A stretch of DNA of 64,000 nt from Candidatus Scalinduaceae bacterium (GCA_046759445.1 JBHICG010000001.1:64001-128000); one strand, 5' to 3'; shown: positions 25,728 to 63,554, counted from the first letter of the stretch. A program made the numbers and translations. Notes: generated by a model not told the origin, from the sequence alone.

Positions 25728-25730
25728 GAA

Positions 25731-45164: not shown

Positions 45165-47711
45165 ATGGAAGTAAACGATAAATCACTTTTTTACGTACAT
45201 GATTATGTTCAAATAGAGAGAGACTCTCTTTATCTACTTATAGACCCCGAAACACCAAATTGGATTGTAACTGACAAAAGAGGCAGCCAGATTGTAAGCA
45301 ATATTAAAAAATGTAAAAACGTTAGAAAACTGATATTCGACTATGCAAATGATTTTGATATGGAACAAACCAGGGCATGGTTGGAAATAGATACATTTCT
45401 GAGGGATTTGATAAGGTGTAAATTCTTATCCTCAGAACCCGTAAAGAAAACTGCTTACGTCGGCAGATCAAATTTCATTCACGCAGAAAAACTCAATGAA
45501 CTATGGATTCACACTAATAATCTCTGCAATCTGACATGTCCGCATTGTCTGGTGAATTCATCTCCACACGAGGATAAAGGTCTTCCTACGGACTCAATCA
45601 AGAAGATTATTGACGAAGCTGTAACATTAGGAACAAGCTGTTTCTATTTTACGGGTGGCGAGCCATTTATGAGGAAAGATATTTTTGAACTTATTGAGTA
45701 TGTTTGCAATCGTAAAGGGACAGAACTGATAATACTTACAAATGGAACACTTCTGAGAGGAAACATCATTGAAAGATTACAAAAGTTTAATAAGGAACAA
45801 CTAAGGATTCAGATAAGCCTTGATGGTTCAAAGCCGGAAATAAACGACCCTTTGAGGGGTAAGGGCAGCTTTGACCAAATTATCGAGGGGATTAAGAATA
45901 TTATCAGGATTGGATATTCTCCGACAATAACAACCGTGGTGACAAAACATAATATTAATGATGTGCCTGAAACGACAAAGCTGATTGCACAATTGGGTGT
46001 AAAGACTCATCATCTCCTCTGGGTACACAAACGAGGCAGGGTAACTGATAATGGTAATGATTTTTTTACTTCAATAGATGAGGTAATCGAAACAACGAGA
46101 AAGGTGAAGGATGTAGCAGATAACCTGGGTATGTCAGTAGACAACATTGATTCTTACAAATTCAGGGCAAATAGCAACAGAGGAACACGTTACGATTTGG
46201 GTAATGCCTGTTACGATAGCATGTGCGTATATTCAAATGGTGAAGTCTACCCGTCTGCTTCATTTGCCGGCCATGAAGGGCTGAAATGTGGAAGTATACT
46301 TGAGAATTCCCTTAGAGAAATCTGGGAAAATAGTAATATTAGCAAGGCATTTAGAAACGCAACACTACAGAATAAAGAAAAATGCAACGAATGTCATATA
46401 AAGTTTATATGCGGTGGTGGTGATATTGAACATTCATTCTTCTATTCTGAAAATGGGTTCAAGCTGGAAAATAATAAATTCCCTGCAGACGTTGGCGTAC
46501 ATGCCTTGGACCCTTATTGTGACCTGCACAAGGAGATAGTCAATGACGTAATATTTGAGCTTGCTGAGGCGAGGAAGAAGTTGTTGGAAAGAAAAACAGG
46601 GTTTACTGCTCCCGTTGTATTACGCTCAATGGGCGAAGGCTCTCTCAATTGTGGATTGACGATTTCGGATTTCGGAATAGAAAATCTAAAATCCGAAATC
46701 CGAAATCCGAAATCGGTTCGTACTCTTCATTCAAACTGTGTGCTTTCTTTTGACGTGGATAAGCCAAGAAGTATTGTACGTGAGTTTTATGGTAATGCGG
46801 CAGAAGCTCCTCAAGAGGACTTATGTTGTCCAACCAAGAATTCAACAGAAGATACAAGTCATATTCCACAGGATGTATTGGACAGGTTCTATGGATGCGG
46901 AAGTCCGACTACAATAGCAGAAGTCTCAGAAGGAGAGACGATGGTCGATTTGGGAGCAGGCGCGGGGATTGACTGTTTCATTGCTGCAAAGAAGGTTGGC
47001 CCAAAGGGTAAGATTTACGGGATAGACATGACGGATGAAATGTTAAAGGTTGCCAATGAAAACAAACATCCGGTGGCAAGGAACCTTGGTTACGATATTG
47101 TGGAATTTAGAAAAGGATTTTTAGAAGATATTCCCGTTGATAATAATTCAGTTGATTTGATCACATCAAATTGCGTTATCAATCTATCCCCTGACAAAAA
47201 AAAGGTCTTCGGCGAAATGTGGCGAATACTGAGGGATCACGGGAGGATTGTTATCTCTGATATTGTTTCTGAAGAAGAAACTCCTCCGTTTTTAAAAATC
47301 AATAAACAACTGTGGGGTGAATGCATCAGCGGCGCATTAACCGAAGACGAATTTATGTCCTATCTTGAACAGGCTGGCTTTTATGGACTTCAAACACTAC
47401 AGAAGGTCTTCTGGAAAGAAGTGGAAGGGTATTCATTCTATTCAGTAACATTACGTGGGTATAAGTTTGAAAAGAAGGAGGGTTGTGTATACGTTGGGCA
47501 AAAGGCAATTTATCATGGCCCGTATAAGGCAATAACGGATGAAGAAGGCCACCTGTTCCCCAGGAACGAGCCCGTTGAAGTCTGCACAGATACAGCGGCC
47601 AAACTAAGCAACCCACCTTATGCAGGACAATTTACCATATTCAATCCTGACGATGCAAATACCGCATCATACAATTGCAGTCCCTCGGAAGAAGGCGTTC
47701 CTTGTTGTTGA
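45165..47711 (+). CDS. Fusion: PqqD/RRE-like N-terminus + radical SAM/SPASM + arsenite methyltransferase (ArsM-like)
   Basis: CNLTCPHC, FTGGEP, SLDG; SPASM-type cysteines; LCCP, FYGCGSP, DLGAGAG, SNCVINL, WGECISGA, terminal CC. Confidence 0.9.
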   Translation: MEVNDKSLFYVHDYVQIERDSLYLLIDPETPNWIVTDKRGSQIVSNIKKCKNVRKLIFDYANDFDMEQTRAWLEIDTFLRDLIRCKFLSSEPVKKTAYVGRSNFIHAEKLNELWIHTNNLCNLTCPHCLVNSSPHEDKGLPTDSIKKIIDEAVTLGTSCFYFTGGEPFMRKDIFELIEYVCNRKGTELIILTNGTLLRGNIIERLQKFNKEQLRIQISLDGSKPEINDPLRGKGSFDQIIEGIKNIIRIGYSPTITTVVTKHNINDVPETTKLIAQLGVKTHHLLWVHKRGRVTDNGNDFFTSIDEVIETTRKVKDVADNLGMSVDNIDSYKFRANSNRGTRYDLGNACYDSMCVYSNGEVYPSASFAGHEGLKCGSILENSLREIWENSNISKAFRNATLQNKEKCNECHIKFICGGGDIEHSFFYSENGFKLENNKFPADVGVHALDPYCDLHKEIVNDVIFELAEARKKLLERKTGFTAPVVLRSMGEGSLNCGLTISDFGIENLKSEIRNPKSVRTLHSNCVLSFDVDKPRSIVREFYGNAAEAPQEDLCCPTKNSTEDTSHIPQDVLDRFYGCGSPTTIAEVSEGETMVDLGAGAGIDCFIAAKKVGPKGKIYGIDMTDEMLKVANENKHPVARNLGYDIVEFRKGFLEDIPVDNNSVDLITSNCVINLSPDKKKVFGEMWRILRDHGRIVISDIVSEEETPPFLKINKQLWGECISGALTEDEFMSYLEQAGFYGLQTLQKVFWKEVEGYSFYSVTLRGYKFEKKEGCVYVGQKAIYHGPYKAITDEEGHLFPRNEPVEVCTDTAAKLSNPPYAGQFTIFNPDDANTASYNCSPSEEGVPCC

Positions 47712-47735: not shown

Positions 47736-48371
47736 TCATTTCAGTGTCTGGTTATACGCTTTTATATTTATGAGCATCACCTCAACGGCCATCATGGCAG
47801 TTGACCAAATAATGTCAGTTGACAGATGTGATACACAACTTGAATCGAACAAGAGGGACGACTTTGATGAGAATTCTTCATCACCTGACCACACAATAAG
47901 TACTACAGGCACCCTTGGAAAAGGGGAAAGCTTTAAAGAAATATCTCCATATTCTAACTGAGAACCATCAAGACTTTTACCGATGTTTAAAAATTCCTTA
48001 AAATTATTGCTAAAGTACTCAGCTATTTTATCCAGGGGAATGACATGCGTGCCTTTCAAAAAAATATCTCCTCCAGGTAAATCTGAGGGCCGCACGAGTT
48101 GACCCGATAACGGTAGATCTTTCGCATGAATCAAGTATCTAAGAATTGAAAGCCTTGAATATTCACGAAGTTCTTTGACCAGGAATTTCCCTAAACTAGA
48201 AGTACCGAAGATATCTCGATTCGTCAATGAAATATAGACATCCTGACCAAAGCAGGCTAGTTCATATGTCGAATTATGAGAATTAAAAATTACATTAGCC
48301 CTGGTTTTTACATCCTTTGAGTCAAGCCCTGTAAGTATATCCCATGCCTGTTTTTCACCTGGCCATGCCAT
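47736..48371 (-). CDS. DUF3786 domain protein (gene cassette)
   Basis: ILRYL, LPGG.IF, PFPRVPV..IVWSGDEEF.S..LLFD; preceded by attC core GTTGTAC. Confidence 0.8.
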   Translation of the reverse strand: MAWPGEKQAWDILTGLDSKDVKTRANVIFNSHNSTYELACFGQDVYISLTNRDIFGTSSLGKFLVKELREYSRLSILRYLIHAKDLPLSGQLVRPSDLPGGDIFLKGTHVIPLDKIAEYFSNNFKEFLNIGKSLDGSQLEYGDISLKLSPFPRVPVVLIVWSGDEEFSSKSSLLFDSSCVSHLSTDIIWSTAMMAVEVMLINIKAYNQTLK

Positions 48372-48385
48372 AATTTATTCTTTTT

Positions 48386-48460
48386 GTACAACGCTCCGCA
48401 TAACCGGCTGGTAAAGAAGCACAGCAGATTTACCAGTCTGAGTTGATGCGGTTGTTGGGC
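48386..48460 (-). other. Integron attC site
   Basis: Minus strand GCCCAAC-aaccgcatcaac...ctggtaaa...tttaccag...ggttatgcggagc-GTTGTAC; imperfect palindrome with RYYYAAC/GTTRRRY-like ends. Confidence 0.88.
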
Positions 48461-48474
48461 ATTGTGCATATGCA

Positions 48475-49344
48475 CTATCTATTTAGTTCGTTCTCGATAA
48501 CGTGCGACAATTTATCCCACGTTTCCTCTTGCTCAATTTCTGGCAATGATAGTAATGGTTTGTCAGGAGAATTTAATGCTTGAAATTGTGAAAGGTGCTT
48601 GTCTCTCAAAAACCGACATGGTTTTAAAATAATAGGTAGTACCCTTGTTCCTTCTAGCTCAGCTTTTTTGAGAATCGGAGGTAGTTCATTCTCAACAATG
48701 AAGTCGGATGCAAGAAAATCGGCACTTATTATTAAAACCGCTATTGCTGCCTCTGATAGTGCTTTTTCGATTTGTTCTTTCCACTTTTCTCCCGTCTTTA
48801 TCTTTGTATCATCCCATACATCAACCAATCCATTTTTTTCTAATGGCTTGAGATGAACATGAAGTCTTTCTAGATGTTTTTTGTCTTCACGGCTATAACT
48901 TATAAATACTGATTTTTTATTTTTTGATTTTGCACTGTTCTCTTCTCTGTAATAGTTTAATTTCTCGTTTTTTAAAAATATATTTCCCCCTGTTCCTATA
49001 GAAGACCGCCATGTCCCTTCTATAGCACCATTACCGATAACCTTAGCATTAAGAGTTACGTTTCCATGATTCGAAGTTGGCATGCTAATGGTTAGTGGAC
49101 GGTTATTAACAAAAATTTGTTGTGTGCAATTTTTCTTTAAAAAATCCCAGTCTGGAGTCATATTCAATGTAATATCATCATTCTTAATTTCTCCTGAAAA
49201 TGAATACACTACTGTACCATGAATTGGGTCATGAATTCTGGCAATACCCGAAAGCTTGGTTAATTCCTGCTTTACTTCTGCAAATACATTTGCATTATTA
49301 GTTCCTGTGATTCTTCCTGACCAATTCCCCTCAATACTTCTCAT
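48475..49344 (-). CDS. TIR (TIR_2) domain protein with N-terminal beta-rich domain (gene cassette)
   Basis: VFISYSREDK, WDDTKI..GEKW, ISADFLASDFI..NELP. Confidence 0.9.
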   Translation of the reverse strand: MRSIEGNWSGRITGTNNANVFAEVKQELTKLSGIARIHDPIHGTVVYSFSGEIKNDDITLNMTPDWDFLKKNCTQQIFVNNRPLTISMPTSNHGNVTLNAKVIGNGAIEGTWRSSIGTGGNIFLKNEKLNYYREENSAKSKNKKSVFISYSREDKKHLERLHVHLKPLEKNGLVDVWDDTKIKTGEKWKEQIEKALSEAAIAVLIISADFLASDFIVENELPPILKKAELEGTRVLPIILKPCRFLRDKHLSQFQALNSPDKPLLSLPEIEQEETWDKLSHVIENELNR

Positions 49345-49431
49345 ATAATTATCCTTTAATAGGTGTATCTTTTAAATTTGATGCTTAACGTTCAGCTTAA
49401 CCGGCTGGCTTTGTAGACATTTTTTCTTGGG

Positions 49432-49590
49432 TTTCTTGGGGATGCATCTTGATATTTGACATTGTGAATTTGCGGCTTACTAAAAAAAGATTTTCCTTCC
49501 ATGATTTTTCAAATAATTTCTTTGATGTTTGATTTGTTTATCAATTTGTTGGTTTTAACTTTGTCAAATGTCAAATACGTCCCCTATCTC
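49432..49590. repeat. About 160-bp REPIN/MITE-like element, copy A
   Basis: Near-identical to 51798-51957; terminal IRs ggggatgcatcttgatatttgaca / tgtcaaatgtcaaatacgtcccc. Confidence 0.85.
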
Positions 49591-49706
49591 CCGTCCTATC
49601 TCCGTCTATTATTGTTTTTTACGCAACTATTTTACTGCAATCCTTCGCCAAGAGGATGTTGCCGTGACTTTTCTATTCTGTAGTGCTTTGTTATGTTTTT
49701 TTGTAA

Positions 49707-50825
49707 TCATTTTTCAACTTCTGCCGCCTGTCTCAATGCTAAAAATGCTTCTTTTAAAGGTTGATTGACAGCGGAATTAGGTTCATCAAGCACTAATTTT
49801 TGATATTCCTCGATAAAAGCTGTTCTTTTTCTATGAAAAAAATGCAGAAAGTGTTTTATGAACCCTATGCAGTCAAGTATTGCTATTTCAAACTTAGACA
49901 AATCATAAATAGATTTTGCATATTCACTAACTTCAAAATCAATTTCTTCGGTGGTTATGAAAATATAGTTATCTATGTTTAACTTAGACTCAGCAATTTT
50001 TTTAATTGCAATCTCAATATCAGATTTGGTTATTCGCTTTTCTTTCATTTCATAGCTTGTAACAATATTATCATCATTGATTAAAGTTACTTCAACGTCA
50101 CCATAAGCACCAGTTTGTTTGTCCGCCGCATTGTGTGCTTGTAAATCATTTATTTTTTCTCCAATCAAATCTGAAACACTGTTATATGCTGCGGCAACTA
50201 TTAAAATAGGTAATCTGCTTGAATTTTTACAAGCCAAGTGTTGCTGCAATAAATTAACAATTTGCTCAGATGATAGAGCAATTGATTTGTCTGAGCCTTT
50301 TAAAGTTTCGATTAGCTGTTTAATCCGTTTAGCATTTTCTTCCCGTATTATGACGAGTATTCTAATCGTTTCTTTAAATAGTTTTTCGGCTGATAAGTTA
50401 CCTTTATGGACTTCATCAATCAACTCAAGAGCTGCTTTGTATAGCTCAGGTTGTCGGCCAACAAGCTCTGTTTTGGGTGTCATTGTTGAATTTCTATTTC
50501 TAAAAGCAGGAGTCAAGTATGCAGTTGTTGTATTGCAAGGAAGGTTATGTTTTTCTATTACCTTTTGTATATACTGCTCGTCATAAGTTCTTCCTGAGTA
50601 AGCATCTTTATCCCTTATTTCTGTATATGGCTTTCTGATATCAATCTTGGAGTTGTCTATTTTTGCAGCGCAGCAGGACAATAAAAACCTTATCGGCGCT
50701 TTAATTCTTATATTCCTACAGACAAACTCTATTTTCTTCTCTAAATGCTTGCTACCAACGAAAGTCCTTTTTGCATGTATTGCTCTTTGTACATATTCTT
50801 CCAGAGTATTCAATAAATTACTCAT
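49707..50825 (-). CDS. Putative Type II restriction endonuclease (SacI-like)
   Basis: H.AADKQTGAYGDVEV...YEMK, a PD-(D/E)xK-like motif; 2 nt downstream of the methylase. Confidence 0.75.
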   Translation of the reverse strand: MSNLLNTLEEYVQRAIHAKRTFVGSKHLEKKIEFVCRNIRIKAPIRFLLSCCAAKIDNSKIDIRKPYTEIRDKDAYSGRTYDEQYIQKVIEKHNLPCNTTTAYLTPAFRNRNSTMTPKTELVGRQPELYKAALELIDEVHKGNLSAEKLFKETIRILVIIREENAKRIKQLIETLKGSDKSIALSSEQIVNLLQQHLACKNSSRLPILIVAAAYNSVSDLIGEKINDLQAHNAADKQTGAYGDVEVTLINDDNIVTSYEMKEKRITKSDIEIAIKKIAESKLNIDNYIFITTEEIDFEVSEYAKSIYDLSKFEIAILDCIGFIKHFLHFFHRKRTAFIEEYQKLVLDEPNSAVNQPLKEAFLALRQAAEVEK

Positions 50826-50827
50826 TT

Positions 50828-51724
50828 TTATAATAACCTGCCTATTGTTTCGACTTCATAATTTACCCATAGCACTTCTTTTCTTTTATCTTTTGTTGAA
50901 TGTATTGTCTTCTGTGGGCCAAAATGTTTTTTCCATTTTGGAGCCGGATATAATTTATCCATTAGTTCACATTCATAATTTGATATTGCAGCTTTTCCCT
51001 TGATATTGTTTAAGACCATTGACAACTGAACATGCTCGTCATTACTCATTTCAAAACCATATGCTTTATTGTCGCCTCTTGTATCGTGAACATATGGCGG
51101 ATCGCAATAAAAAAGAGTTTCCTTACTATCATACAATTGTATTACTTCAATTGCCGGTCTATTTTCAATCTGAACTCTTAAAAGCCTTTCTGCAATAAAA
51201 TCAAGCTTTTCAACTCCACCAATATAACGACTGATAACACCACTCATTCCAGAACGACTTGTATTTTTGCAATTTGCCCATCTTCCAATTGTTGCCGTTT
51301 GTGCTAATCCGGTTCTTACTTGCCTCGCTCTTATATAAAACCTTCTTGCACGTTCTAACTCATCCTGACTACTATCCAACTCGCAGGCTAGAGAAAATTC
51401 TTCTCTGGAAAACGGCGTTAACAAGATTTGTTCTAAAAGTTTCTCTTTTTGAGATCGTAAAACTCTAAAGAAATTAACAACTTCTCCGTCTAAATCATTA
51501 TATGTTTCTACATTAGATGGATATCTGTTGAAAAGCACTGCACCTGAACCTGCAAATGGTTCACAGTAATGATTACAAGAGGGCAAAAGAGGTAATAACC
51601 AATCCAAATGAGAATATTTTCCCCCATACCACCCAAAAGCAATTACCTTTTTTCCATTTAATCTTGTTAATGGTGAGGGAGTCTTTTTTCCGTTTTTACA
51701 ATTCTTTATCTGCATTTTAATCAT
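50828..51724 (-). CDS. DNA adenine methyltransferase (D12/Dam class)
   Basis: WYGGK, EPFAGSGAV, YNDLD, YCDPPY. Confidence 0.93.
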   Translation of the reverse strand: MIKMQIKNCKNGKKTPSPLTRLNGKKVIAFGWYGGKYSHLDWLLPLLPSCNHYCEPFAGSGAVLFNRYPSNVETYNDLDGEVVNFFRVLRSQKEKLLEQILLTPFSREEFSLACELDSSQDELERARRFYIRARQVRTGLAQTATIGRWANCKNTSRSGMSGVISRYIGGVEKLDFIAERLLRVQIENRPAIEVIQLYDSKETLFYCDPPYVHDTRGDNKAYGFEMSNDEHVQLSMVLNNIKGKAAISNYECELMDKLYPAPKWKKHFGPQKTIHSTKDKRKEVLWVNYEVETIGRLL

Positions 51725-51797
51725 CCCCTATTCTTGTTTTTTTTGAAACCCAACTCATTTATTCTTTACCCTGCATTTGTTTTATTCTTATCCATAT

Positions 51798-51957
51798 TTT
51801 CTTGGGCACACATCTTGACATTTGACATTATGAATTTGCGGCTTACTAAAAAAAGATTTTCCTTCCATGATTTTTCAAATAATTTCTTTGATGTTTGACT
51901 TGTTTATCAATTTGTTGGTTTTCACTTTGTCAAATGTCAAGATACATCCCCTATCTC
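51798..51957. repeat. About 160-bp REPIN/MITE-like element, copy B
   Basis: Direct repeat of 49432-49590; abuts an attC core. Confidence 0.85.
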
Positions 51958-51958
51958 G

Positions 51959-52006
51959 TCCTAACATTGAATTGAGCAGTTTATCTGCTCAAATGACTGG
52001 TTGTGC
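51959..52006 (-). other. Integron attC site (short)
   Basis: Minus strand GCACAAC-cagtcatttgagcag-ataaa-ctgctcaattcaat-GTTAGGA. Confidence 0.8.
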
Positions 52007-52124
52007 ATCATGACATCTAATTTTGTACTCGTCATCGCAAACTTGTCTGTTTGTTTATACCCCATCGTCAGCAATTTCCTTCCAAAATACGGGCGCTACC
52101 CCTGGTTTTTCTTTGGTGTAAGTT

Positions 52125-53642
52125 TTAAATATCAACGTTGAATGGGAAAACTCCTACCTCTTCCTGTAGTAATCTTTGTGCCATAACAACGTCAGGGTCA
52201 TCCCGATTTTGATCGTAAAAAAGCTGGTCAATCATAGAAGTCAATATAAAAATGTTATGTGCTTCTTGTGCGTCAATAAATTTAATTTTACTAAGTGTTA
52301 CACTTCTTGAGAACGATTGTGCTATTTGTAGTCCTTGGTCGTTTTCAAAACCCCGATAAACCACCTCACCTCTAGATTCGAAGTTTTTCTCAATTAGCAC
52401 GCCTCCCTTTATAAAGTCTTGACGAACCGGTGGATTAACATACTTTGAGCACGAATTATTATATTTACTAGGGTCTATATATGTCTCTGGATTTTCTAAA
52501 AAAATATTGATCATATGTTTTTGAGCATCGCAAACATTTTTGATAAACTTTAAAAATATACTTTTATCGAAAAGATTAGCCCAAGCTAAGTCGAGAGGGA
52601 AAACTTTTTCAATCATTTTTGGAAATTTATCGGCTTCACGTAGTCCATGCTTAAAAGCTTTGTTAACTTTTGACAGATTAGTTATATCACTCCAATCGTC
52701 AAAGAGCTGAATAGACAAGCTTGAGCCATTTGGAGGTCCCGCTTTTAATAAGTAATTGTGTATAGCAGCAAATCTAAAAGTTGGACACGCTCGCCATTTA
52801 TCATCTTCATATGATCCCATTAATGACCAAAATACGATAGCTGATGCCATTTCTAAAGGCATTAATTTGTTATGACGGTGCCAAATATTTAGTAGCGCAC
52901 GGTATAATATAATATAGGGTACATTCAGTTCCTTAAAAACAATGTCCTGAAATCTTTGGAGTGACTGCTTCCCTAAATCTGACCAAATCGTCTGCATTTG
53001 GCAAATTAGCCCGGACAATTCAAATATATGGCAAGGTTGATAGATGACAGATTCAGATTGTTTTGGTGGTCGAAAAGTAAAATTTCTCATCATCTGATAA
53101 TAATGCATTGTGACCGCAATTAACCGATCAAAATGATTAAGTGTTTCATTTTTAGCCAGTTTTAGTAGTGAATTGTCAAGCGTGAAAAAAGGTAAAGTAC
53201 AAGGTCGGTAATGTAAACCATTTTTAAGAGGCCTCAAATCGGAAAGGTGTTTGAGCATGCTTTGTCGTTTATGATAATCATAACGAGACCAAGAAGAAAT
53301 TGGTACTGGAATACAATTAAAGGATTCATTGTTTTTCATATCTATCAAATGTCCAAGAGTCTGCACACCGTTAAAAAGTATCACCATGCGTAGCCTCCAC
53401 AACATCTGACTATATGGTGCTATAAGAAAATCATGAAAGTGGCGTACTTCGTGAGAACAAACTGAAACCATTGACAAAGCATCAAATGCCTGAACTGGCG
53501 ACAAAGATAATATTTCATTCTCAGTGATTGATCCAGCTCGATCTAACCAATTGCAGCTGTTTTGATCGGCTACACGGATCACAACGCCTACATATTTTGG
53601 ATTAAAACCCCCGTAATCAGCTTGGATAGAATTGATTATCAT
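52125..53642 (-). CDS. Hypothetical protein with HEXXH motif (possible zincin-like peptidase)
   Basis: 505-aa ORF; CSHEVRHFHD; ATGA overlap with the upstream gene. Confidence 0.7.
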   Translation of the reverse strand: MIINSIQADYGGFNPKYVGVVIRVADQNSCNWLDRAGSITENEILSLSPVQAFDALSMVSVCSHEVRHFHDFLIAPYSQMLWRLRMVILFNGVQTLGHLIDMKNNESFNCIPVPISSWSRYDYHKRQSMLKHLSDLRPLKNGLHYRPCTLPFFTLDNSLLKLAKNETLNHFDRLIAVTMHYYQMMRNFTFRPPKQSESVIYQPCHIFELSGLICQMQTIWSDLGKQSLQRFQDIVFKELNVPYIILYRALLNIWHRHNKLMPLEMASAIVFWSLMGSYEDDKWRACPTFRFAAIHNYLLKAGPPNGSSLSIQLFDDWSDITNLSKVNKAFKHGLREADKFPKMIEKVFPLDLAWANLFDKSIFLKFIKNVCDAQKHMINIFLENPETYIDPSKYNNSCSKYVNPPVRQDFIKGGVLIEKNFESRGEVVYRGFENDQGLQIAQSFSRSVTLSKIKFIDAQEAHNIFILTSMIDQLFYDQNRDDPDVVMAQRLLQEEVGVFPFNVDI

Positions 53643-53995
53643 TTCTCTTTTAATAACCCCGTAGCATTTTGAAGTTTTAGTTGGATTTCCATTTCAGTCA
53701 TACCCGCAGTTATTTCTTCAGATGCAACCATCGTTCTAATTACAATTTTTTGGTTTGGGTTGTTCTTCATCCAACGTTCTAAAAGTTTAGCGAATTCTTT
53801 GCTAATAAATATACCACCTTGAATGATTGCTATTACCGCTGCCACTTCAATTATACCAAATTGCAGGTAGGTTTGTTCCTTTTTGCTTGCAATATCTTCG
53901 ATTACTATGTCATTGGCTTGAGCAAAAGTTCGAAATTGTTCAACAAAAGCAGGGTCACATAGAATCTCCGTACGTACACTCTTTGGATTAGTCAT
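53639..53995 (-). CDS. Small protein with a central Gly-containing hydrophobic helix pair (EACC1-like, tentative)
   Basis: QFGIIEVAAVIAIIQGG..SKEFAKLLERWMK...KIVIRT; AAGGAG RBS. Confidence 0.65.
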   Translation of the reverse strand: MTNPKSVRTEILCDPAFVEQFRTFAQANDIVIEDIASKKEQTYLQFGIIEVAAVIAIIQGGIFISKEFAKLLERWMKNNPNQKIVIRTMVASEEITAGMTEMEIQLKLQNATGLLKEK

Positions 53996-54028
53996 AAGCT
54001 ATCTCCTTTTTTTACTAAAGTGATTATA

Positions 54029-54264
54029 ACAAGTTATTATAAAGTTTTTGGATATCACCACTATTGTAATGATATCAAGAAAACCAAGTTACTACCTTAT
54101 GGAAAAGCAGCGGGAAGGTTCATTTATTTACGTTTCTGCAAAAATAAACTTAATTCAAGATGATTTAATCTCATCACACAATGCGGCATAGTCTTTATAC
54201 TGTTTGAATTGAACATGTTGGAATAGTAAAGCTACATATTATTGAAGTCAAGGGAAAAGAAATG
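54029..54264 (-). repeat. 236-bp attI-like leader, copy 1
   Basis: Near-identical to 58278-58513; minus-strand end TTATAAT-aactt-GTTATAA has simple-site geometry and identity stops at the G/TT point. Confidence 0.75.
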
Positions 54265-54358
54265 AAGGGGTCTCAATGGGTCATCTCAATCTCAACTCAA
54301 GGGGTCAAGTCTGCCGATAGCTAATCTAATAAAGACTGTATACGTAAAATAATATCAG

Positions 54359-55699
54359 TTAAGCCATAAGCAGACTTGACCCTTTTCGTTTATCCAATTT
54401 CCTATAACATAGTAAATTCTGGCTATGATATAGAAGGTATTTTATGATCTCAAAAATCAACAACGCAGCAAGAATACAAAAGACTACTTCAGAAACATAT
54501 CTGTATCTGGTCTTTCCCCAAAAAATTAACGCGTATCCTATCCAGTTCATCATCACGATTCCGTATAGAAAGACCCACATTCTGAAGGTATATCGGCACA
54601 AGAATAAGAAGGACAAACTAGCAGCCAAAAACAAAGCAAAATAGGTTAGTGTCAATTTGTAAAACCAATAGGTACCTTTCAGTTCTTTTGATGGCCATGG
54701 TGTTCCTTGTTCTAATCTTGGTAAGCGAGTACTCCATGCTACGGAATAAGTATCCGAAGTAAAAAATAATTTGTACGTTCCTTTTGCAATATCCTTGGCT
54801 ATTCTTAATAGGCTAGCGTTGGTTAGATACTCAAGTCCAAGTTGGTAACCGAGTTCCTGCTGCTGAACCTCATTCTTACCGTCGAAAACTGTTCCCTTTA
54901 GAGTATGCCAGCCATATCGATTCTCATTATGAGCATAATAGAAGTTTATGCCTCCTGTGGTAGACAATCCTGACCCCGCACCAACCAAGTAATGGTTCCG
55001 GATATACCAAGGAGCAATGGTTACACCAAAAGCCAACAAAACTAGAAATACCGACAAATATCTGTGAGCGTTATGACTGAAATTGAAATATATCATCACT
55101 AAAAGTACTGGCAAAAAAAAGATGGCCTCGCCACGAGTCAAGGCTGCTGTTCCAAATAATACACCGGACAATACTAGTCTCACAGTCCGACGAGTAGATA
55201 AATTTACACGGTTGTCGCATAAAACCAAAAAAGCTGAAAAGAGGAAGATAACGTACAAATGCTCTGAAACAAGTACTGGTGATAAGAAAACAAACGTTGG
55301 ATTAAAGGCACAGATCAAAGCAGCGAGTATTGAAAGTAGTTTTTCTGAAGTTAGATATAACACAAGCCTCCATACTATATAGATCAAGAATGTGGACAGA
55401 ATCACATTGACAAAACTTAACCAAGCTATTGAATTACTTATCCACATTGTGATAGCAAGAAAGACTGGGTACCCGGGAAGTCGAAACGCGGACGGATTTG
55501 GAATTCCAAGCTGACCCTGCTTCAAGAGTCCTTCAGCCAAACGTAGATACTCCTCAGAGTCTGATACTGGAACTGGTTCAGCATATGCCCACCATAGAAC
55601 TCGTGCTGCAAATCCAAACAGAATAATAAGAATGATCCATATTGGACATTCCCGCAATGATAGAGGTATGAAACCAAGAGTGTTCTTTTTTTTCATCAT
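54359..55699 (-). CDS. ArnT/GT39-like membrane glycosyltransferase (gene cassette)
   Basis: DSEEY, AFRLPGYP, LVSEHL, LTRGE, IAPWYIRN, TRYRY. Confidence 0.85.
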   Translation of the reverse strand: MMKKKNTLGFIPLSLRECPIWIILIILFGFAARVLWWAYAEPVPVSDSEEYLRLAEGLLKQGQLGIPNPSAFRLPGYPVFLAITMWISNSIAWLSFVNVILSTFLIYIVWRLVLYLTSEKLLSILAALICAFNPTFVFLSPVLVSEHLYVIFLFSAFLVLCDNRVNLSTRRTVRLVLSGVLFGTAALTRGEAIFFLPVLLVMIYFNFSHNAHRYLSVFLVLLAFGVTIAPWYIRNHYLVGAGSGLSTTGGINFYYAHNENRYGWHTLKGTVFDGKNEVQQQELGYQLGLEYLTNASLLRIAKDIAKGTYKLFFTSDTYSVAWSTRLPRLEQGTPWPSKELKGTYWFYKLTLTYFALFLAASLSFLFLCRYTFRMWVFLYGIVMMNWIGYALIFWGKTRYRYVSEVVFCILAALLIFEIIKYLLYHSQNLLCYRKLDKRKGSSLLMA

Positions 55700-55712
55700 G
55701 AATCCTTATAAA

Positions 55713-55839
55713 GGCTAACGTTTAAGCTAAGCTAACCCGCTTAGCAAATAGAACTATGAATAAGGATAAAATAAACAAAGAATCTAAAACTTGAAAACCG
55801 CACATGATAAAAGGGGTTAGCTTAAGCGAATGGTTATGT
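55713..55839 (-). other. Integron attC site
   Basis: Minus strand ACATAAC-cattcgcttaagctaaccc...gggttagcttagcttaaac-GTTAGCC. Confidence 0.88.
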
Positions 55840-55846
55840 AATTTTT

Positions 55847-56383
55847 CTAAGTCTTGTTAATTTGTTTGAGTGCTTTAGGTACTCTTATATGTTGTTTTAT
55901 TAATGGTTTTGATTTGTAAATATTAACAAATGTTTGTCTCAAGTCTTTATTTATTTCCAAGTCGTTGACAAATAATTTGTGAGCTTTTTTCATATGGCGA
56001 AATAGAGGATACGGATTTATAATAACATGATCAAAGCCATTTGGTTTTTTCAGATGTATTTCTTGAGCCCATGTCTCTTTACTACAGAGAATGATAAATT
56101 TGTTTTCCATATTGAATGAATGAACTAACCCACACCTTATAATTTTGTAAAAAATCTCAGGTTCATAACTTTCAGGGAAATAGTTTCCAACAAAAGTCAT
56201 AATTTTCTTCTTATTACCACTTGTGCTTGGACTTGCTGCTGCATAATTTGCCAATGTATCTACAGCACAGCATATTAATATTGTTGCGCCAACTCCCTGA
56301 TGTAGTTTTAGACAACTTGCAATATTTGAGTACACATATGCAGGAAAGTGTTTATTAAATCTGGAAACATAGGGATTACTCAT
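55847..56383 (-). CDS. Hypothetical cassette protein, HEPN-like
   Basis: Helical; ICCAVDTLA and RCGLVH (Rx4H) motifs. Confidence 0.65.
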   Translation of the reverse strand: MSNPYVSRFNKHFPAYVYSNIASCLKLHQGVGATILICCAVDTLANYAAASPSTSGNKKKIMTFVGNYFPESYEPEIFYKIIRCGLVHSFNMENKFIILCSKETWAQEIHLKKPNGFDHVIINPYPLFRHMKKAHKLFVNDLEINKDLRQTFVNIYKSKPLIKQHIRVPKALKQINKT

Positions 56384-56395
56384 ATTAATTTTTAA

Positions 56396-56503
56396 ACATA
56401 ATGAAACGGATGAGCTACGGCGGAGATGAAAAAGATTTTATGAGTCAATAATAAGTCTAGGATCGCCTAAGTCTTCGTCGTTAGCTCAAGCCGATTGTTA
56501 GAT
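56396..56503 (-). other. Integron attC site with variant core (ATTATGT)
   Basis: Minus strand ATCTAAC-aatcggcttgagctaacg...cgtagctcatccgtttc-ATTATGT; FRG stop codon lies in the inverse core. Confidence 0.82.
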
Positions 56504-57418
56504 TTTTGTGTCATTTGGAGGTGGAAACCGCATATCTCTCAAATAATTTGTTTTTGAATTATAGTTGTATGAATTAATTACATCTTGTGCAACACCATCA
56601 GCATTCATATATAAAGCCCCTCCATTAATTCCCATAAGTTCTAATTTAGCAAAAACATCAGTTACACAATCTTTTTTAATAAATACTTTATAAAGAGTAG
56701 CTTCCGCCTTCTCTATCTCTCCATTTGGGAGATGTGTATCTGGCTCCTTATGCTTCTCGATCAATTCGTCTAAATTTTCAGCATCTATATTGCTGTAGTT
56801 AAGTGTGTCATAAAGAAAAGCTCCATGTTGCCGATGCATGCGAGAGTTATATTTTCCTGGAAATGGAATGAATTGCATCCATGGACCTGGAAAACCATCT
56901 TTAAATAGGTCTCCTTTTGGATAAAGAAAATCTTTATATCGTTTCATGACTTCATCATATTTTTCTTTTGGATCTAGAAACAGTGTAGCCCACAACCATG
57001 CCAACTTGCTAAAATTTAAAGCATAAATAACAGAATATTCCTTTTCTTTTGACTTGTAGTTTCTCCTAACTCCATTGAAAGTGAAAAATAATGCGATATA
57101 TGGGGAATAACTGAAATCTAAAACGGGTGTGGGGACACCATGATGGCGGGCATATTCAAGCCAATCAAGGCGATTGTCACTTTTAAAAGGCAGCATTCCG
57201 AGCTTCGTCAGACCAACACGAAATTTGTCGATCATTTCGTCAATATCTGAACTCCATGATTCATGGGGTATTTTCCTGTGACGATTTAAGGTTGTTGTTA
57301 GTTTATAATGTTCTTTCGTATGTCCTCTAAATACAAAGTCTCTCTTTACAAGAGCAAGATTATCTAAAAACTCAAAAGCACTATTCGCATTATCAAAATG
57401 GTGATTTTCAATGCTCAT
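56498..57418 (-). CDS. FRG domain protein (gene cassette)
   Basis: FVFRGH, ARHHGVPTPVLDFSYSPYIALFF, RMHRQHGAF. Confidence 0.92.
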   Translation of the reverse strand: MSIENHHFDNANSAFEFLDNLALVKRDFVFRGHTKEHYKLTTTLNRHRKIPHESWSSDIDEMIDKFRVGLTKLGMLPFKSDNRLDWLEYARHHGVPTPVLDFSYSPYIALFFTFNGVRRNYKSKEKEYSVIYALNFSKLAWLWATLFLDPKEKYDEVMKRYKDFLYPKGDLFKDGFPGPWMQFIPFPGKYNSRMHRQHGAFLYDTLNYSNIDAENLDELIEKHKEPDTHLPNGEIEKAEATLYKVFIKKDCVTDVFAKLELMGINGGALYMNADGVAQDVINSYNYNSKTNYLRDMRFPPPNDTKI

Positions 57419-57434
57419 TCTTTTTCTCTTTAAA

Positions 57435-57492
57435 ATCTAACGGCCGAATTAAGCGGGCGTGTTAACGCTCCGACTTGAATGATTTGTTATAA
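57435..57492 (-). other. Integron attC site
   Basis: Minus strand TTATAAC-aaatcattcaagtcgg...ccgcttaattcggcc-GTTAGAT; the core complements the ATCTAAC closing the FRG cassette. Confidence 0.88.
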
Positions 57493-57498
57493 GATAAA

Positions 57499-58266
57499 TC
57501 ATTGAAGTGCAATAGAACTTAATTTTACAAGAATTTTCCAGCCAGTAATCACTAGCCTAGTTAGAACTGAAGTGATTATTAAACTTAATACAATTTGTCC
57601 AAATAATCCCAATGGTTTCTTTTTAAATGACGTAATTGGCCAATACTTGTCTCGAAGTTTACCCAGCAATACTAAAATGTAAGTCCATAGGTTTGAGAAA
57701 ATAAGAAAAAAACCGATGAACAAAACAAAAAAGGAGTATTTTACTTTGAGTGCTGGCGAGAGGAGACTCGCTACTATTAAGCAGAAAGAAAAGCCAGCGA
57801 TGACGCCGAAAAGTTGAATAAGCAATTCAGTAAAGGGATTCCGAGTTACACCATTGTGATTTTGGTACTGTGCGAGTCTCGTCGAAAGTCTTTTGAAAAC
57901 ATTATCAACCCATTTTTCATCATCATCAGATACAGCAAGATAACATCTTGAGCTATCTGAAGCATCTAATAGTATTTGTATTCTTTTTCCTTTATTTTCT
58001 AAAAGGTTTTTAACAGAGGAAAAATCAAAGATAACACGCTCAATTTTTTTTCCAGTTTCGAAACAGCGTTTTATTTCGGAATAATCTTTCCTAACAATTC
58101 CCATCCCATCGTAACGCAGGGTGTATACATTCGATTTTAGTTTTTCATCTTCAGAAAATGAGCTAGTTTCGTTTACGATAGTCTGTAAATCCGAGTTTAT
58201 TGCGTCAATATCACCTATGCCAATAGTTAAATAGGGCATGAAACTATCTTTTAAGTAATCACTCAT
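57499..58266 (-). CDS. Hypothetical membrane protein (soluble N-domain + about 3 TM), first cassette
   Basis: 255-aa ORF between the attI-like leader and an attC. Confidence 0.75.
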   Translation of the reverse strand: MSDYLKDSFMPYLTIGIGDIDAINSDLQTIVNETSSFSEDEKLKSNVYTLRYDGMGIVRKDYSEIKRCFETGKKIERVIFDFSSVKNLLENKGKRIQILLDASDSSRCYLAVSDDDEKWVDNVFKRLSTRLAQYQNHNGVTRNPFTELLIQLFGVIAGFSFCLIVASLLSPALKVKYSFFVLFIGFFLIFSNLWTYILVLLGKLRDKYWPITSFKKKPLGLFGQIVLSLIITSVLTRLVITGWKILVKLSSIALQ

Positions 58267-58277
58267 TTATTTACCTT

Positions 58278-58513
58278 ACAAGTTATTATAAAGTTTCTGG
58301 ATAACATCACTATTGTAATGATATCAAGAAAACCAGGTTACTACCTTATGGAAAAGCAGCGGGAAGGTTCATTTATTTACGTTTCTGCAAAAATAAACTT
58401 AATTCAAGATGATTTAATCTCATCACACAATGCGGCATAGTCTTTATACTGTTTGAATTGAACATGTTGGAATAGTAAAGCTACATATTATTGAAGTCAA
58501 GGGAAAAGAAATG
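58278..58513 (-). repeat. 236-bp attI-like leader, copy 2
   Basis: Direct repeat of 54029-54264, immediately upstream of the first cassette. Confidence 0.75.
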
Positions 58514-58816
58514 TGTAAGTGAGATATAGGGTGGGGTGCACCGCAAAGCGCTCAAAACCAGAAAATTAATCAAAATTAAGGTAATGTCCTAATTTCAGTA
58601 TCTTTCGTATTGCTTCCTAAATTTTTAGAGTCCTTACCCGATAAATATAAAAACAAGAAAAGATTTTTTTATTAACTGTAGTTTTTAATTGACTATTTTA
58701 AAAAAAATGATTTATAATATTTAAATTACCCTAAATTATGTTATCTGCCAACACAGTACAACTTTTCTTTAAAGAACAAGTGTTATCACAAGCTTCTAAT
58801 AGGACTATAATTAGCG

Positions 58817-59230
58817 TTGGTAAATGCTTATTCATGCAAGATTAAATGGCCTGTAGATGGCAAAGAAATAGTAATACGAATAGAACCAGCGTATTTTGAT
58901 TTTCTTAAAATTTATTGGCCAAATGATTTTATTAATCTTTATACAGTACATGAAGTATTAATAAAACCTAATCGTATATTCTCTGGTCTCAACAGACCTT
59001 ATAGTGATAGTAGTAATAAACTATGTGTTGTTGGTAAACCTCTTTATTGGTATATAGGAAATACCAACAACAAAGTGCCTTTTCCATCCGGCTTCGTTTA
59101 TGTAGTATTTTTGAACGAAAGATACAGTGTATATGAATTTGGAGCAGAGAAAGCAGATACAGATGATTCATTAAGTCCTATAGGTTGGAGAGATCGCTTT
59201 GGAGAACTGATATGGAAGAAAAATTCATAG
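58817..59230 (+). CDS. Hypothetical protein, possible toxin of a TA-like pair
   Basis: 137 aa, overlaps the next gene; EVLIKPNRIF pattern recalls BECR-fold RNases (weak). Confidence 0.55.
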   Translation: MVNAYSCKIKWPVDGKEIVIRIEPAYFDFLKIYWPNDFINLYTVHEVLIKPNRIFSGLNRPYSDSSNKLCVVGKPLYWYIGNTNNKVPFPSGFVYVVFLNERYSVYEFGAEKADTDDSLSPIGWRDRFGELIWKKNS

Positions 59231-59637
59231 AACAAGTGACACAAGGCTTAAAAGGAAGTGATTTTGGCTCTAAGCAACATGAGCCTCAGATTTGGTATAA
59301 CAAAGAAGGTGACTGTATTCAATTTAAGACCAGACATGTTGCGACAATAAGAAAGAGAATTGACGAATATTTAACATTATATGCGACAATGGAAGATGAA
59401 GATCCAATTGGATTTCAATTAAAAGATATACATGCACTAGCCAGTGTACATGATATAGATTTAATGGCTATACAAGCAGATTACACTTCTAGGGATAAAA
59501 AGTTAGTTTCAATCAGTATGCTGATATTTAAGGCTTTTGCTAAAAGACCTCCTTCTATAAACAGGATTTCTGGCTATACAGATGCATTTAGGACTATGGT
59601 AAAAGATGGAGATAATGTAAAAATTCCAGTATCATAA
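59212..59637 (+). CDS. Hypothetical protein, DUF2283-like
   Basis: WYNKEGDCIQF...IDEYLTLY...PIGFQLK; GGAG RBS before ATG 59212. Confidence 0.6.
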   Translation: MEEKFIEQVTQGLKGSDFGSKQHEPQIWYNKEGDCIQFKTRHVATIRKRIDEYLTLYATMEDEDPIGFQLKDIHALASVHDIDLMAIQADYTSRDKKLVSISMLIFKAFAKRPPSINRISGYTDAFRTMVKDGDNVKIPVS

Positions 59638-59691: not shown

Positions 59692-60531
59692 TTAGTCAAC
59701 AGACCACATATATATTTTGTCAATGGTACTATCTTTATTCTTTGCACCAACCATGAAACATTTTGATTGACAAGGAATATTCTCACCAAAGACTTCAATT
59801 CTTATCTTTAAATCACCATTATCTGTAGAATAACGCACAGGGATTCTGGTATAGTTATGATCAACCTCAATATGGCAAATATCAAAACTAAGACTATCTT
59901 CTTCTTTCCCTGCCATGTACCATTCTAATACATCCACAAATATACATTCTCCAGGAGCAATATTAACAGATCGCCTATAGGGTTGAACGTTGTTATCCGT
60001 AAATTTAAGAATTTCCTCCCTACCAGTGGTTCCCTCAACTATCAGTTTAGCCTTAACATCTTTAATTGTTGTTACAGAAGAATCATTGTGAATAGAAATT
60101 CTCCACACTCGCTCAAAGCGATCATATATATGTTTTGTGTTTGGATTCTTATTTTTTTGGAAAGTATCATGACAATAACTTGGATTATTTTCAGAAAAAT
60201 CTATTCGTAATTTAGGTTTTTGCTGTTCTTCTAAAAATTCTATTGTTTGCTGTTTAGAATTTATAATATCTTGTTGTTCTTCGTAGATATCTTCAGGTAC
60301 AAGACGCAGTGATTTCCATAAAAATAGAACTCCAAACATTATTATTACTCCTATAAATTCATAAAGTAATGACATTAAAATGTTATAATTTTTATTGGCT
60401 ACAAGAATACCATTAATAATTGTTCCAATGATTATAGTGGCAATCTCGTATAATTTCTTTTCCTTAAAAAATTCCCAAATTTCGTTCTTTGTTCTTAAAA
60501 GGCGAATTTTGTGGTATTTTCTAGATTCCAT
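59692..60531 (-). CDS. Hypothetical protein: 2 TM + coiled coil + beta-rich C-domain
   Basis: 279-aa ORF; hydrophobicity pattern only. Confidence 0.65.
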   Translation of the reverse strand: MESRKYHKIRLLRTKNEIWEFFKEKKLYEIATIIIGTIINGILVANKNYNILMSLLYEFIGVIIMFGVLFLWKSLRLVPEDIYEEQQDIINSKQQTIEFLEEQQKPKLRIDFSENNPSYCHDTFQKNKNPNTKHIYDRFERVWRISIHNDSSVTTIKDVKAKLIVEGTTGREEILKFTDNNVQPYRRSVNIAPGECIFVDVLEWYMAGKEEDSLSFDICHIEVDHNYTRIPVRYSTDNGDLKIRIEVFGENIPCQSKCFMVGAKNKDSTIDKIYMWSVD

Positions 60532-61904: not shown

Positions 61905-63554
61905 CTAAATGGGACAACTTATGTCTTCCAATTCTCCGCTGAAGACTTTCTTGTTCTCAGAATAGTCTATCGGACATTCGATAATGACCGGTCCTTTCTC
62001 ATCAAAAGCCTTCTCTAACTCAGGAAGAAGCTCGTCTGTAGAATTAATCTTGAATCCTTTAGCCCCATAACTCTCAGCATACTTGACAAAATCAGGGTTG
62101 CCGTAATCTAGGGCAAAATTCTTGTACCCATAAATCTGCTGCTTCCATTTAATAAAGCCATAGGCATTGTCGTTAAGGATGAGTACAACTACGTTTAGTC
62201 CCAATCTCACTGCTGTCTCTAATTCCTGGGAATTCATCATAAAACCACCATCCCCTACAACCGCCAGAACTTTCTTTTTCGGATGGACTATTTTACCCGC
62301 CATCGCGCTGGGCAGTCCAGCGCCCATAGTAGCCAGGGTATTATCCAGGAGGAAGGTGCCAATGTTGTAGGTTTCGTAATGACGCGAGAACCAGAGTTTG
62401 TAGATACCATTGTCCAGACAGAGAACGTCTTCCTTTCCGAGTGTCTTCCTGCAATCGGCAACTATGCGACGTGGTTTAAGAGGATAACTTGGGTCATCTG
62501 CACCTTCTACAAACAGTTTGGCATTTAATTCTTTTTTTACTCTCTCCTCATACTCCCCGCTATAATAGTAACCTTTCAATTCTTTACCCAGTAATTCCAG
62601 GGAAGTTCCTATATCTCCTACAAGTTCCCAATCAGGGTTGTAATAAGTATCAGTCCTCGCGGGGTTAAAGTTAAGATGGAGAATCTTCTTATCCATATTT
62701 TTGTTCCAGACGCTAGGAGGATGCTCACGAGTAGAGTAGCCAACCGTAATGACCAAATCTGCTCTGTCAACCACACAATGAACGTAATCTTTTTTATGAA
62801 TGCCGAATGCATAAAGGCAGTTTTTATGATCTGCTCCCAATACACCTTTCCCTAATTGAGTATGAATGGCATAAATGTTGGTTTGGTCACAGAATTTCCG
62901 TAAGGCATCACGGACTAAGTTCCTTTGAGCCCTGCTGGAGACAATGATAATGGGGTGTTCGGCTTTCCGAATTATCTCAGCAGCTATCCTGACCCCCTTA
63001 GTATCTGCAATAGGCCGTCGCACTTTGATTGACTTCTGTGGATGGATAGAATCATCAACCTTCTCGTTAGCAATATCTTCAGGCACCTCAATATGACAGA
63101 CTCCTTGCCGTTCTGTTGTTGCTACTTTAAAGGCCATTCTAATCTCTTTTGGAATTGGTTTCGGACCTTTAATTTGCACCACCCTCTTGGTAAGTGACTT
63201 CATCATGTTAACAACATCCAGAACCTGAAAATTTGCCAGTTCATTGTTGCGAATTCCTTTCTGTCCGGTGATTGCCAGCAGAGGCATTCCACCAAGTTGA
63301 GCGTGGGCAATTCCCGTTACTAAGTTAGTTGCACCCGGACCCAGGGTAGACATGCAAACCCCTACTTTCCCGGTTAATCTCCCGTAAGTAGCCGCCATAA
63401 AAGCCGCTGCCTGCTCATGGCGGTTAACTATTACCTTTATATTAGATTTCCGCAAACTTTCCAGGAGGTGCAGGTTTTCCTCACCGGGAACGGTAAAAAT
63501 ATACTCCACTCTTTCTTCTTCCAAACATTTGACAAATAAATCAGAAGCTTTCAT
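61905..63554 (-). CDS. Acetolactate synthase large subunit family (ThDP enzyme)
   Basis: PGEENL, RHEQAAAFMA, TLGPGATN, GDGGFMMN..E...LND. Confidence 0.93.
   Translation of the reverse strand: MKASDLFVKCLEEERVEYIFTVPGEENLHLLESLRKSNIKVIVNRHEQAAAFMAATYGRLTGKVGVCMSTLGPGATNLVTGIAHAQLGGMPLLAITGQKGIRNNELANFQVLDVVNMMKSLTKRVVQIKGPKPIPKEIRMAFKVATTERQGVCHIEVPEDIANEKVDDSIHPQKSIKVRRPIADTKGVRIAAEIIRKAEHPIIIVSSRAQRNLVRDALRKFCDQTNIYAIHTQLGKGVLGADHKNCLYAFGIHKKDYVHCVVDRADLVITVGYSTREHPPSVWNKNMDKKILHLNFNPARTDTYYNPDWELVGDIGTSLELLGKELKGYYYSGEYEERVKKELNAKLFVEGADDPSYPLKPRRIVADCRKTLGKEDVLCLDNGIYKLWFSRHYETYNIGTFLLDNTLATMGAGLPSAMAGKIVHPKKKVLAVVGDGGFMMNSQELETAVRLGLNVVVLILNDNAYGFIKWKQQIYGYKNFALDYGNPDFVKYAESYGAKGFKINSTDELLPELEKAFDEKGPVIIECPIDYSENKKVFSGELEDISCPI

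Follow-up and report, generated by a model that had tools for sequence, protein, structure and literature searches.

Clusters of attC sites lacking an integron integrase (CALINs) consist of two or more attC sites spaced by under 4 kb on a single strand, with intI absent from the vicinity, and 83% of them carry fewer than six sites (Cury et al. 2016, PMC4889954). Sedentary chromosomal integrons have been described as stores of anti-phage systems, with CALIN cassettes counted too (bioRxiv 10.1101/2024.07.02.601686), and the Planctomycetes are one of 11 taxa with enough chromosomal attC sites for a taxon-specific model (Ghaly et al. 2021, PMC8352920). Both integrons and attC arrays in Planctomycetes (PMC4889954, PMC8352920) and defence genes in integron cassettes, CALINs included (10.1101/2024.07.02.601686), are already in print. 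Here we investigated a 64,000-nucleotide stretch of DNA (the window) from a Candidatus Scalinduaceae bacterium (GCA_046759445.1 JBHICG010000001.1:64001-128000), in which positions 47,736–58,513 had been proposed, from sequence alone, to hold an integrase-less integron cassette array rich in defence-like cargo. The observation of an integrase-less cassette array was confirmed as real: the array is genuine, partly decayed and mixed in cargo, and arrays of this sort are already well described. With high confidence, we read 47.7–58.5 kb as a chromosomal integron cassette array without an adjacent integrase, attI or common promoter (Pc), that is, as a CALIN.

The array resembles published CALINs (PMC4889954) in being small, in carrying mostly unknown genes and in having no antibiotic-resistance gene, and it does not differ from them in kind; what it adds are visibly degenerate sites and two pairs of cassettes that share long 5' leaders, the repeats D1 and D2. 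Like sedentary chromosomal integrons (10.1101/2024.07.02.601686), it has cassettes with restriction–modification and other compact defence-type genes, whereas it has no integrase, attI or Pc and its defence activity is predicted. Sedentary integrons are further set apart by more than 10–19 cassettes with homogeneous attC sites, compared with approximately nine units here and heterogeneous attC sites (28–59% pairwise identity over the longer site). Class 1 mobile integrons (e.g. In1, plasmid R46) have the same attC architecture as the window sites, but the window array is chromosomal and lacks intI1, the 3' conserved segment and resistance genes.

attC sites and cassette boundaries

Ten real-looking genes occupy 47.7–58.3 kb, all on the minus strand and with an attC at each cassette 3' end, forming approximately nine cassette units of one or two genes each (Table 1). 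Read along the minus strand, the array runs as follows: D1, the 255-aa gene and attC1; the FRG gene and attC2; the 178-aa gene and attC3; the PMT_2-like gene and a 105-nt hairpin; D1 again, the 118-aa and 505-aa genes and attC4; D2, the methyltransferase and endonuclease genes and a weak site; D2 again and an orphan L'–R' arm; the TIR gene and attC5; and, last, the DUF3786 gene with a lone R'' at its end. GC content is 0.30–0.37 from 48 to 61 kb and 0.41–0.44 in both flanks. The four attC sites supported by covariance models lie at intervals of 1.6, 3.7 and 3.5 kb on a single strand and the window holds no integrase, so that the locus falls under the rule for CALINs given by Cury et al. 2016 and the configuration proposed in the sequence-only reading stands.

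We built stand-in covariance models containing no window sequence from known attC sites of class 1 integron plasmid loci (L081–L086): R2 from 12 sites of 57–72 nt, and R3 from 16, three of which measure 95–134 nt. Both strands of the 64 kb were searched with R2 and R3 with filters off. A third model, R1, was seeded from attC1 of the window alone; MAFFT alignments of the window's own attC sites (A1 and A2) left the 3' arms unaligned and were set aside for this single-site seed and then for the models from known attC. An earlier proposal had been that an attC covariance model should find these sites, and it did so at 57435, 51959, 55713 and, more weakly, 48386, with end points as predicted and every match on the plus strand (the bottom strand of cassettes read from the minus strand). 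The next-best scores in the window were 9.6 bits (R2) and 9.4 bits (R3). Across 80 unrelated loci (1.45 Mb, default filters), R3 returned one match at E ≤ 10, at 13.9 bits, and its top score in 88 kb searched with filters off was 13.5 bits. Three sites (attC1, attC3 and attC4) are far above noise, and attC5 is supported by R2 only. R2 fails on known attC sites longer than approximately 80 nt (aac(3)-Ia, dfrA17 and dfrA1), so that a lack of R2 matches at long sites of the window carries little weight. Applied to plasmid R46, the window-seeded R1 placed the four true attC sites at ranks 1, 2, 3 and 5 of 11 (34.3, 22.5, 14.3 and 12.8 bits), with one false match at 13.8 bits; within the window, attC4 was its sole non-self match at E < 0.1. 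Of five attC hairpins that had been called complete, four were recovered by R2 or R3 with identical end points, whereas the site at 56396–56503 has no model match and an ATT core.

The architecture against which the sites were compared consists of an R'' box (..AAC), a spacer of approximately 5 nt, an imperfect stem whose R'' arm carries extra bases, a second spacer and R' (GTT..). The RNAalifold consensus of the R2 alignment (A5) reproduced the textbook layout of an R box, a 5–6-nt spacer and a stem in which one arm has unpaired positions, with compensatory change in 12 of 19 pairs. Spacers of 5 and 5–6 nt and extra bases on the R'' arm are the same in window sites and known sites. This architecture is present in attC1 (72% identical to the psp and aadA1 attC sites), attC3, attC4 and attC5, and also in attC2, which has two extra bases on the R'' arm, except for its core, where G is replaced by A (ATTATGT). 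The bottom strands of attC2 and attC5 folded at −13.5 kcal/mol (z = −2.6) and −16.2 kcal/mol (z = −3.8), respectively, with z-scores for all attC candidates taken from mononucleotide rather than dinucleotide-preserving shuffles. No Rfam family reached its gathering score in the window, and three weak matches in the array region were at chance level.

Our own hairpin scanner gave scores of 13–31.5 in 17 of 18 regions with known attC sites (the 18th was cut too short); it was unspecific in the window (61 and 65 matches at a score of at least 14) and was therefore given little weight. One strong AAC...GTT-flanked hairpin with a scanner score of 25 lies inside the neighbouring radical-SAM gene (46352–46463) and has no R2 or R3 match.

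Recombination at the G|TT point of attC would leave the first bases of a cassette complementary to its own R'' box. In the seven cassettes compared, starts matched their own R'' at 18 of 28 variable positions; the mean of permuted pairings was 11.1, and only 28 of 5,040 pairings attained 18. The match was 4/4 for the FRG cassette (start GTTAGAT, end ATCTAAC) and the 178-aa cassette, 3/4 for DUF3786, 2/4 for three cassettes and 1/4 for the PMT_2-like cassette. Over seven bases, the complementary ends that had been pointed out by eye were likewise found (7/7 for FRG, 7/7 for the 178-aa gene if the A is read as G, and 6/7 for DUF3786). The same count in class 1 arrays gave 47/52; the signal in the window is real but eroded.

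The earlier half-site calls fared unevenly. At 47751 the call of a partnerless R'' was borne out (47757..47751, 40 nt from the stop of the convergent radical-SAM/methyltransferase gene), as was that of an L'–R' arm at 49383. The R'' at 49690 is present, but its possible partner, GTTGCGT at 49627–49621, is weak, and neither the fold nor the models support the pairing. At 54358 the element is attC-like but not a half: it belongs to a complete hairpin (54394–54290, no model match) with AAC–5 nt–stem–5 nt–GTT geometry, no extrahelical bases, z-scores of −3.7 and −4.0 and the top scanner score of the window (28.5). The 5' arm of this hairpin holds the R''-like GGCTTAAC, a near match to the cassette's own start, and the hairpin also has a weak Rfam match to rli51 (E = 0.038). 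An alternative attC end for the restriction–modification cassette, GATAGGA (49600–49594), has no stem and was dropped.

Table 1. Features of the cassette array in the order in which they are met along the minus strand (positions counted from the first letter of the window)
Feature	Position	Strand	Description
D1 repeat, copy 1	58278..58513	-	236 nt, 98% identical to copy 2; lies immediately upstream of the 255-aa gene
255-aa protein	57499..58266	-	Soluble N-terminal part and C-terminal hydrophobic helices; no Pfam family
attC1	57435..57492	-	58 nt, TTATAAC ... GTTAGAT; R2 40.3 bits, E = 1.4e-8; R3 36.5 bits
FRG-domain protein	56498..57418	-	306 aa; Pfam FRG 1.1e-19; PADLOC PDC-S15 1.9e-36
attC2, degenerate	56396..56503	-	108 nt, ATCTAAC ... 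ATTATGT; read by eye; no R2/R3 match
178-aa protein	55847..56383	-	Unnamed family, 99 representatives at E ≤ 1e-3
attC3	55713..55839	-	127 nt, ACATAAC ... GTTAGCC; R3 29.0 bits, E = 8.5e-5, exact ends; missed by R2; scanner 26.5
PMT_2-like glycosyltransferase	54359..55699	-	Membrane protein, 446 aa; Pfam PMT_2 5.3e-5, below gathering score
Atypical attC-like hairpin	54290..54394	-	105 nt: GATAAAC, 5 nt, 13-bp perfect stem, 5 nt, GTTGAGA
D1 repeat, copy 2	54029..54264	-	Begins 26 nt past the R' before it; upstream of the 118-aa gene
118-aa protein	53639..53995	-	Stop overlaps the 505-aa gene start by 4 nt
505-aa protein	52125..53642	-	Rare family, invariant HEVRH (HExxH) motif
attC4	51959..52006	-	48 nt, GCACAAC ... 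GTTAGGA; R2 29.3 bits, E = 1.2e-5; R3 31.6 bits; R1 18.2 bits
D2 element, copy 1	51798..51963	-	166 nt; starts at the second base of the restriction–modification cassette; RNA fold z = −4.4
Dam-like N6-adenine DNA methyltransferase	50828..51724	-	298 aa; Pfam MethyltransfD12 4e-24; PADLOC MTase_II 8.4e-57
SacI-like restriction endonuclease	49707..50825	-	372 aa; Pfam RE_SacI 1.9e-6, 28.5 bits against a cut-off of 19.3
Doubtful weak attC	49621..49696	-	76 nt, ACATAAC ... GTTGCGT; hand-read; z = −0.8; no model match
D2 element, copy 2	49432..49598	-	95% identical to copy 1
Orphan L'–R' attC half	49383..49410	-	Ends GTTAAGC; 86% like the attC5 3' arm (repeat comparison D17)
TIR-domain protein	48475..49344	-	289 aa, TIR at residues 146–255; Pfam TIR_2 1.5e-16; PADLOC ThsB 8.8e-21
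attC5	48386..48460	-	75 nt, GCCCAAC ... GTTGTAC; R2 18.3 bits, E = 0.012; R3 13.8 bits
DUF3786 protein	47736..48371	-	211 aa; Pfam DUF3786 2.1e-36
Lone R''	47751..47757	-	GTATAAC, inside the DUF3786 gene 3' end; rest of attC missing; fold z = +0.4

Integrase, leader repeats and origin of the array

No Phage_integrase domain (PF00589) was found in the 54 window open reading frames (ORFs) scanned or in 37 more frames (stop to stop, 70 aa or longer) from 37.7 to 64 kb, and tblastn of IntI1 from plasmid R46 against the window gave a best E value of 0.033, inside an unrelated gene. The earlier statement that the window lacks a tyrosine recombinase is thus upheld, and it extends to remnants. Upstream of the first cassette, the stretch at 58.5–60.7 kb shows no attC or attI-like boundary; only 5.5 kb of sequence is visible beyond this end of the array. 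The head of a complete integron, with intI, an adjacent attI and Pc, was not found in the window.

In the history that we favour, an integron integrase would once have inserted the units through recombination at the G|TT point of the attC bottom strand in its folded form, here the plus strand of the window. Without the integrase, the array would be static and its cassettes would become mobile again only with IntI supplied in trans; expression would come from read-through or from promoters inside cassettes, for which the D1 and D2 leader repeats are candidates. On a contig labelled as an alphaproteobacterial metagenome-assembled genome (MAG), we also noted IntI1-like tblastn matches (L029:10524-11413; 52% over 69 aa and 30% over 171 aa) in a locus where R2 found no attC, and this gene may be an ordinary tyrosine recombinase.

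D1 precedes two unrelated cassette genes. It contains a 30-codon ORF, its RNA structure is not notable (z = −1.0), and its first copy has a promoter-like site (TTGACT-17-TACTAT, 58500–58472) with 9 of 12 matches. D2 resembles a miniature inverted-repeat transposable element (MITE), with terminal inverted repeats of approximately 23 nt containing TTGACATTTGACA (tandem TTGACA), and no further D2 copies were found in the window or in 80 control loci. Promoter-like sites overall were not above the shuffled expectation (45 versus 54.9), nor were terminator-like sites (11 versus 7.7). The sequence-only reading had held that the genes leave little room for promoters; this is so in four of the seven gaps between cassette genes (80–147 nt) but not in the other three, which span 360–400 nt and contain the repeated elements.

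Several features of the array are signs of decay: the ATT core of attC2, the truncated last attC and the orphan half-site beside a gene-less D2 leader, to which we add a boundary complementarity well below that of active class 1 arrays. The orphan L'–R' arm lies 22 nt after the second D2 copy, and in our own reading this copy once led a cassette whose gene, along with the 5' half of its attC, was deleted. Taken together, the ATT core, the truncated last site and the orphan half-site point to an array whose form recombination no longer maintains, and, given that several sites have decayed, we read it as an ageing relic rather than an active platform.

A number of observations weigh against reading the locus as a relic CALIN. 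R2 and R3 stand in for IntegronFinder's own attC model, and their calibration was shortened, so that E values are rough. The R3 score of attC5 lies at the R3 noise level, and the site is significant with R2 only. Neither model matches 56396–56503, 54290–54394 or 49621–49696, R3 not even when only 161 bases or 13 kb were searched, and the cassette boundaries at these three places rest on hand reading alone. At a scanner score of at least 20, seven minus-strand hairpins were found, only four of them in the array. The upstream boundary of the first cassette (255 aa) is not recognizable, and the low-GC sequence continues through 58.5–60.6 kb with three genes and no attC. Finally, we infer the inactivity of the array only from its decay.

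Among other explanations, the one that survives best is that the array is a detached part of a working integron, with an intI–attI platform elsewhere in the genome and cassettes still excised and re-used in trans. CALINs may originate by rearrangement or by secondary-site insertion, and approximately half lie in replicons encoding IntI (Cury et al. 2016, PMC4889954); here, four sites are still good attC-model matches, and the 64-kb window is only part of the 158-kb contig. Set against this, no integrase lies within those 64 kb and the decay at several sites suggests little recent selection for recombination, leaving a detached, working integron possible but doubtful. We consider it unlikely that a transient or plasmid-borne integrase instead inserted the cassettes singly at a secondary site in the chromosome and that they never belonged to a resident integron (origin (ii) in Cury et al. 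2016, PMC4889954): nine consecutive units would arise more easily via an attI platform that was later lost, and the last attC, being truncated, has the look of a deletion rather than an insertion junction, even though the heterogeneous attC sites are as expected from several cassette sources and no attI-like boundary precedes the first cassette. The idea that other mobile elements assembled an ordinary defence island here, its hairpins being terminators or repetitive extragenic palindromic (REP)-like repeats that resemble attC by chance, can draw on the low GC content, the defence genes, the MITE-like repeats, the three hand-called hairpins that fail the models and the comparable stems that the scanner finds elsewhere (for example, inside the gene at 46352–46463), but it is largely refuted and very improbable given three 29–40-bit matches falling in 10.8 kb of a single strand, each directly behind a stop codon, with nothing above 14 bits in 1.45 Mb of control DNA, the recovery of genuine R46 attC sites by the window-seeded model, the significant boundary complementarity and the coincidence of none of the 11 terminator-like sites with a called attC.

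Cassette cargo

Defence-model matches occur in three of the nine cassette units of the CALIN: the restriction–modification pair, the TIR gene and the FRG gene. The earlier description of the cargo as defence-like holds for these three but not for the PMT_2-like and DUF3786 cassettes, which have no defence link, and the cargo as predicted from sequence is a varied set of accessory genes, some of them of phage-defence type. The methyltransferase and endonuclease genes lie 2 nt apart and are predicted to form a type II restriction–modification system. The TIR protein matches ThsB, and no ThsA model matched any of 14 neighbouring proteins, so the ThsB–ThsA pair that identifies Thoeris was not found there. 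The FRG domain has been described as belonging to the ART superfamily and as a possible NADase (PMC9503650).

The remaining, unannotated cassettes encode proteins for which searches of the PDB by sequence, fold searches and the Atlas returned no named relative; it is conceivable that they too act in defence. The 178-aa protein is modelled as all-alpha (pLDDT 92.8), and in an alignment of 48 sequences (A8) its R83 and H88, spaced as Rx4H, are at least 90% conserved. HEPN ribonucleases are all-alpha domains with an Rx4-6H motif. The Rx4H of the 178-aa protein recalls this motif and is a lead rather than a result: HEPN chains in the PDB gave TM scores of 0.27–0.29 against the model (E > 5), the protein has no Pfam match, and none of the 48 members has a HEPN-type match. 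A fold search of the PDB found no match (best E = 3.1), and the fold resembles two uncharacterized phage proteins (TM 0.55–0.58).

Four homologues of the 505-aa protein (30–52% identity) were found in 5.8 billion clusters, all with HExxH (alignment A7); its model is mediocre (pLDDT 68.6), and nothing in the PDB matched it by fold or sequence. The 118-aa protein encoded just upstream had no homologue but itself in a word-based search, and the idea of a conserved 118-aa and 505-aa pair, left without support by this lack of relatives, was dropped. The 255-aa protein matches phrog_30208, a phage family of unknown function (3.2e-20), and the Atlas gives only hypothetical and membrane-protein clusters for it. 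The PMT_2-like protein also matches the NCBIfam LA_3751/2 family (1e-7), below the cut-off.

As a tentative proposal, at least one of the 178-aa, 505-aa (with 118-aa) and 255-aa proteins might represent a new kind of anti-phage gene, and D1 and D2 could be portable promoter modules, maintaining cassette expression where the common promoter has been lost.

Surroundings and significance

A contig search with the flanking thiamine pyrophosphate (TPP) enzyme returned only distant relatives (best 76% identity), and in tblastn of 24 window proteins against 80 loci only the neighbouring aldehyde dehydrogenase was shared, the rest being isolated weak matches of three proteins in single loci. The closest relatives of the TPP enzyme (61905-63554; 74–76%) lie on MAG contigs labelled Methanosarcinales and Woesearchaeota (L001, L002). 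The window genes are plainly bacterial (ExbBD, an RND pump and ECF sigma factors), and the TPP pattern could reflect mislabelled bins or gene transfer. For the AcrB-like protein of the window, the nearest named relatives belong to a 'Candidatus Brocadiaceae bacterium' (85%) and a 'Planctomycetes bacterium' (80%), a hint from one gene that the host is probably a planctomycete of the Brocadiaceae lineage.

Upstream of the array are three genes without a family (139, 156 and 279 aa), two on the plus strand at 58811–59637, which overlap in an operon-like manner, and one on the minus strand at 59692–60531; none is associated with an attC. On the other side, 45165–47711 (plus strand) encodes an 848-aa fusion of a radical-SAM/SPASM domain and an ArsM-like arsenite methyltransferase domain, whose best NCBIfam matches are below cut-offs. 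Farther away, at 16220–17640 and 25185–26537, an ECF sigma factor is twice paired with a zf-HC2 anti-sigma factor; the pairs are similar, and one lies directly upstream of an RND efflux operon.

General knowledge of integrons is unchanged by this locus, which provides a well-checked instance of a cassette array without an integrase from what is probably a Brocadiaceae-type planctomycete, a lineage not readily amenable to laboratory study. The array is seen in decay, with a mutated crossover base, an orphan half-site beside a gene-less leader and a truncated terminal site. It also yields a short list of compact anti-phage candidates, comprising the FRG, lone TIR, Rx4H, HExxH and membrane proteins, together with leaders that are candidate promoters.

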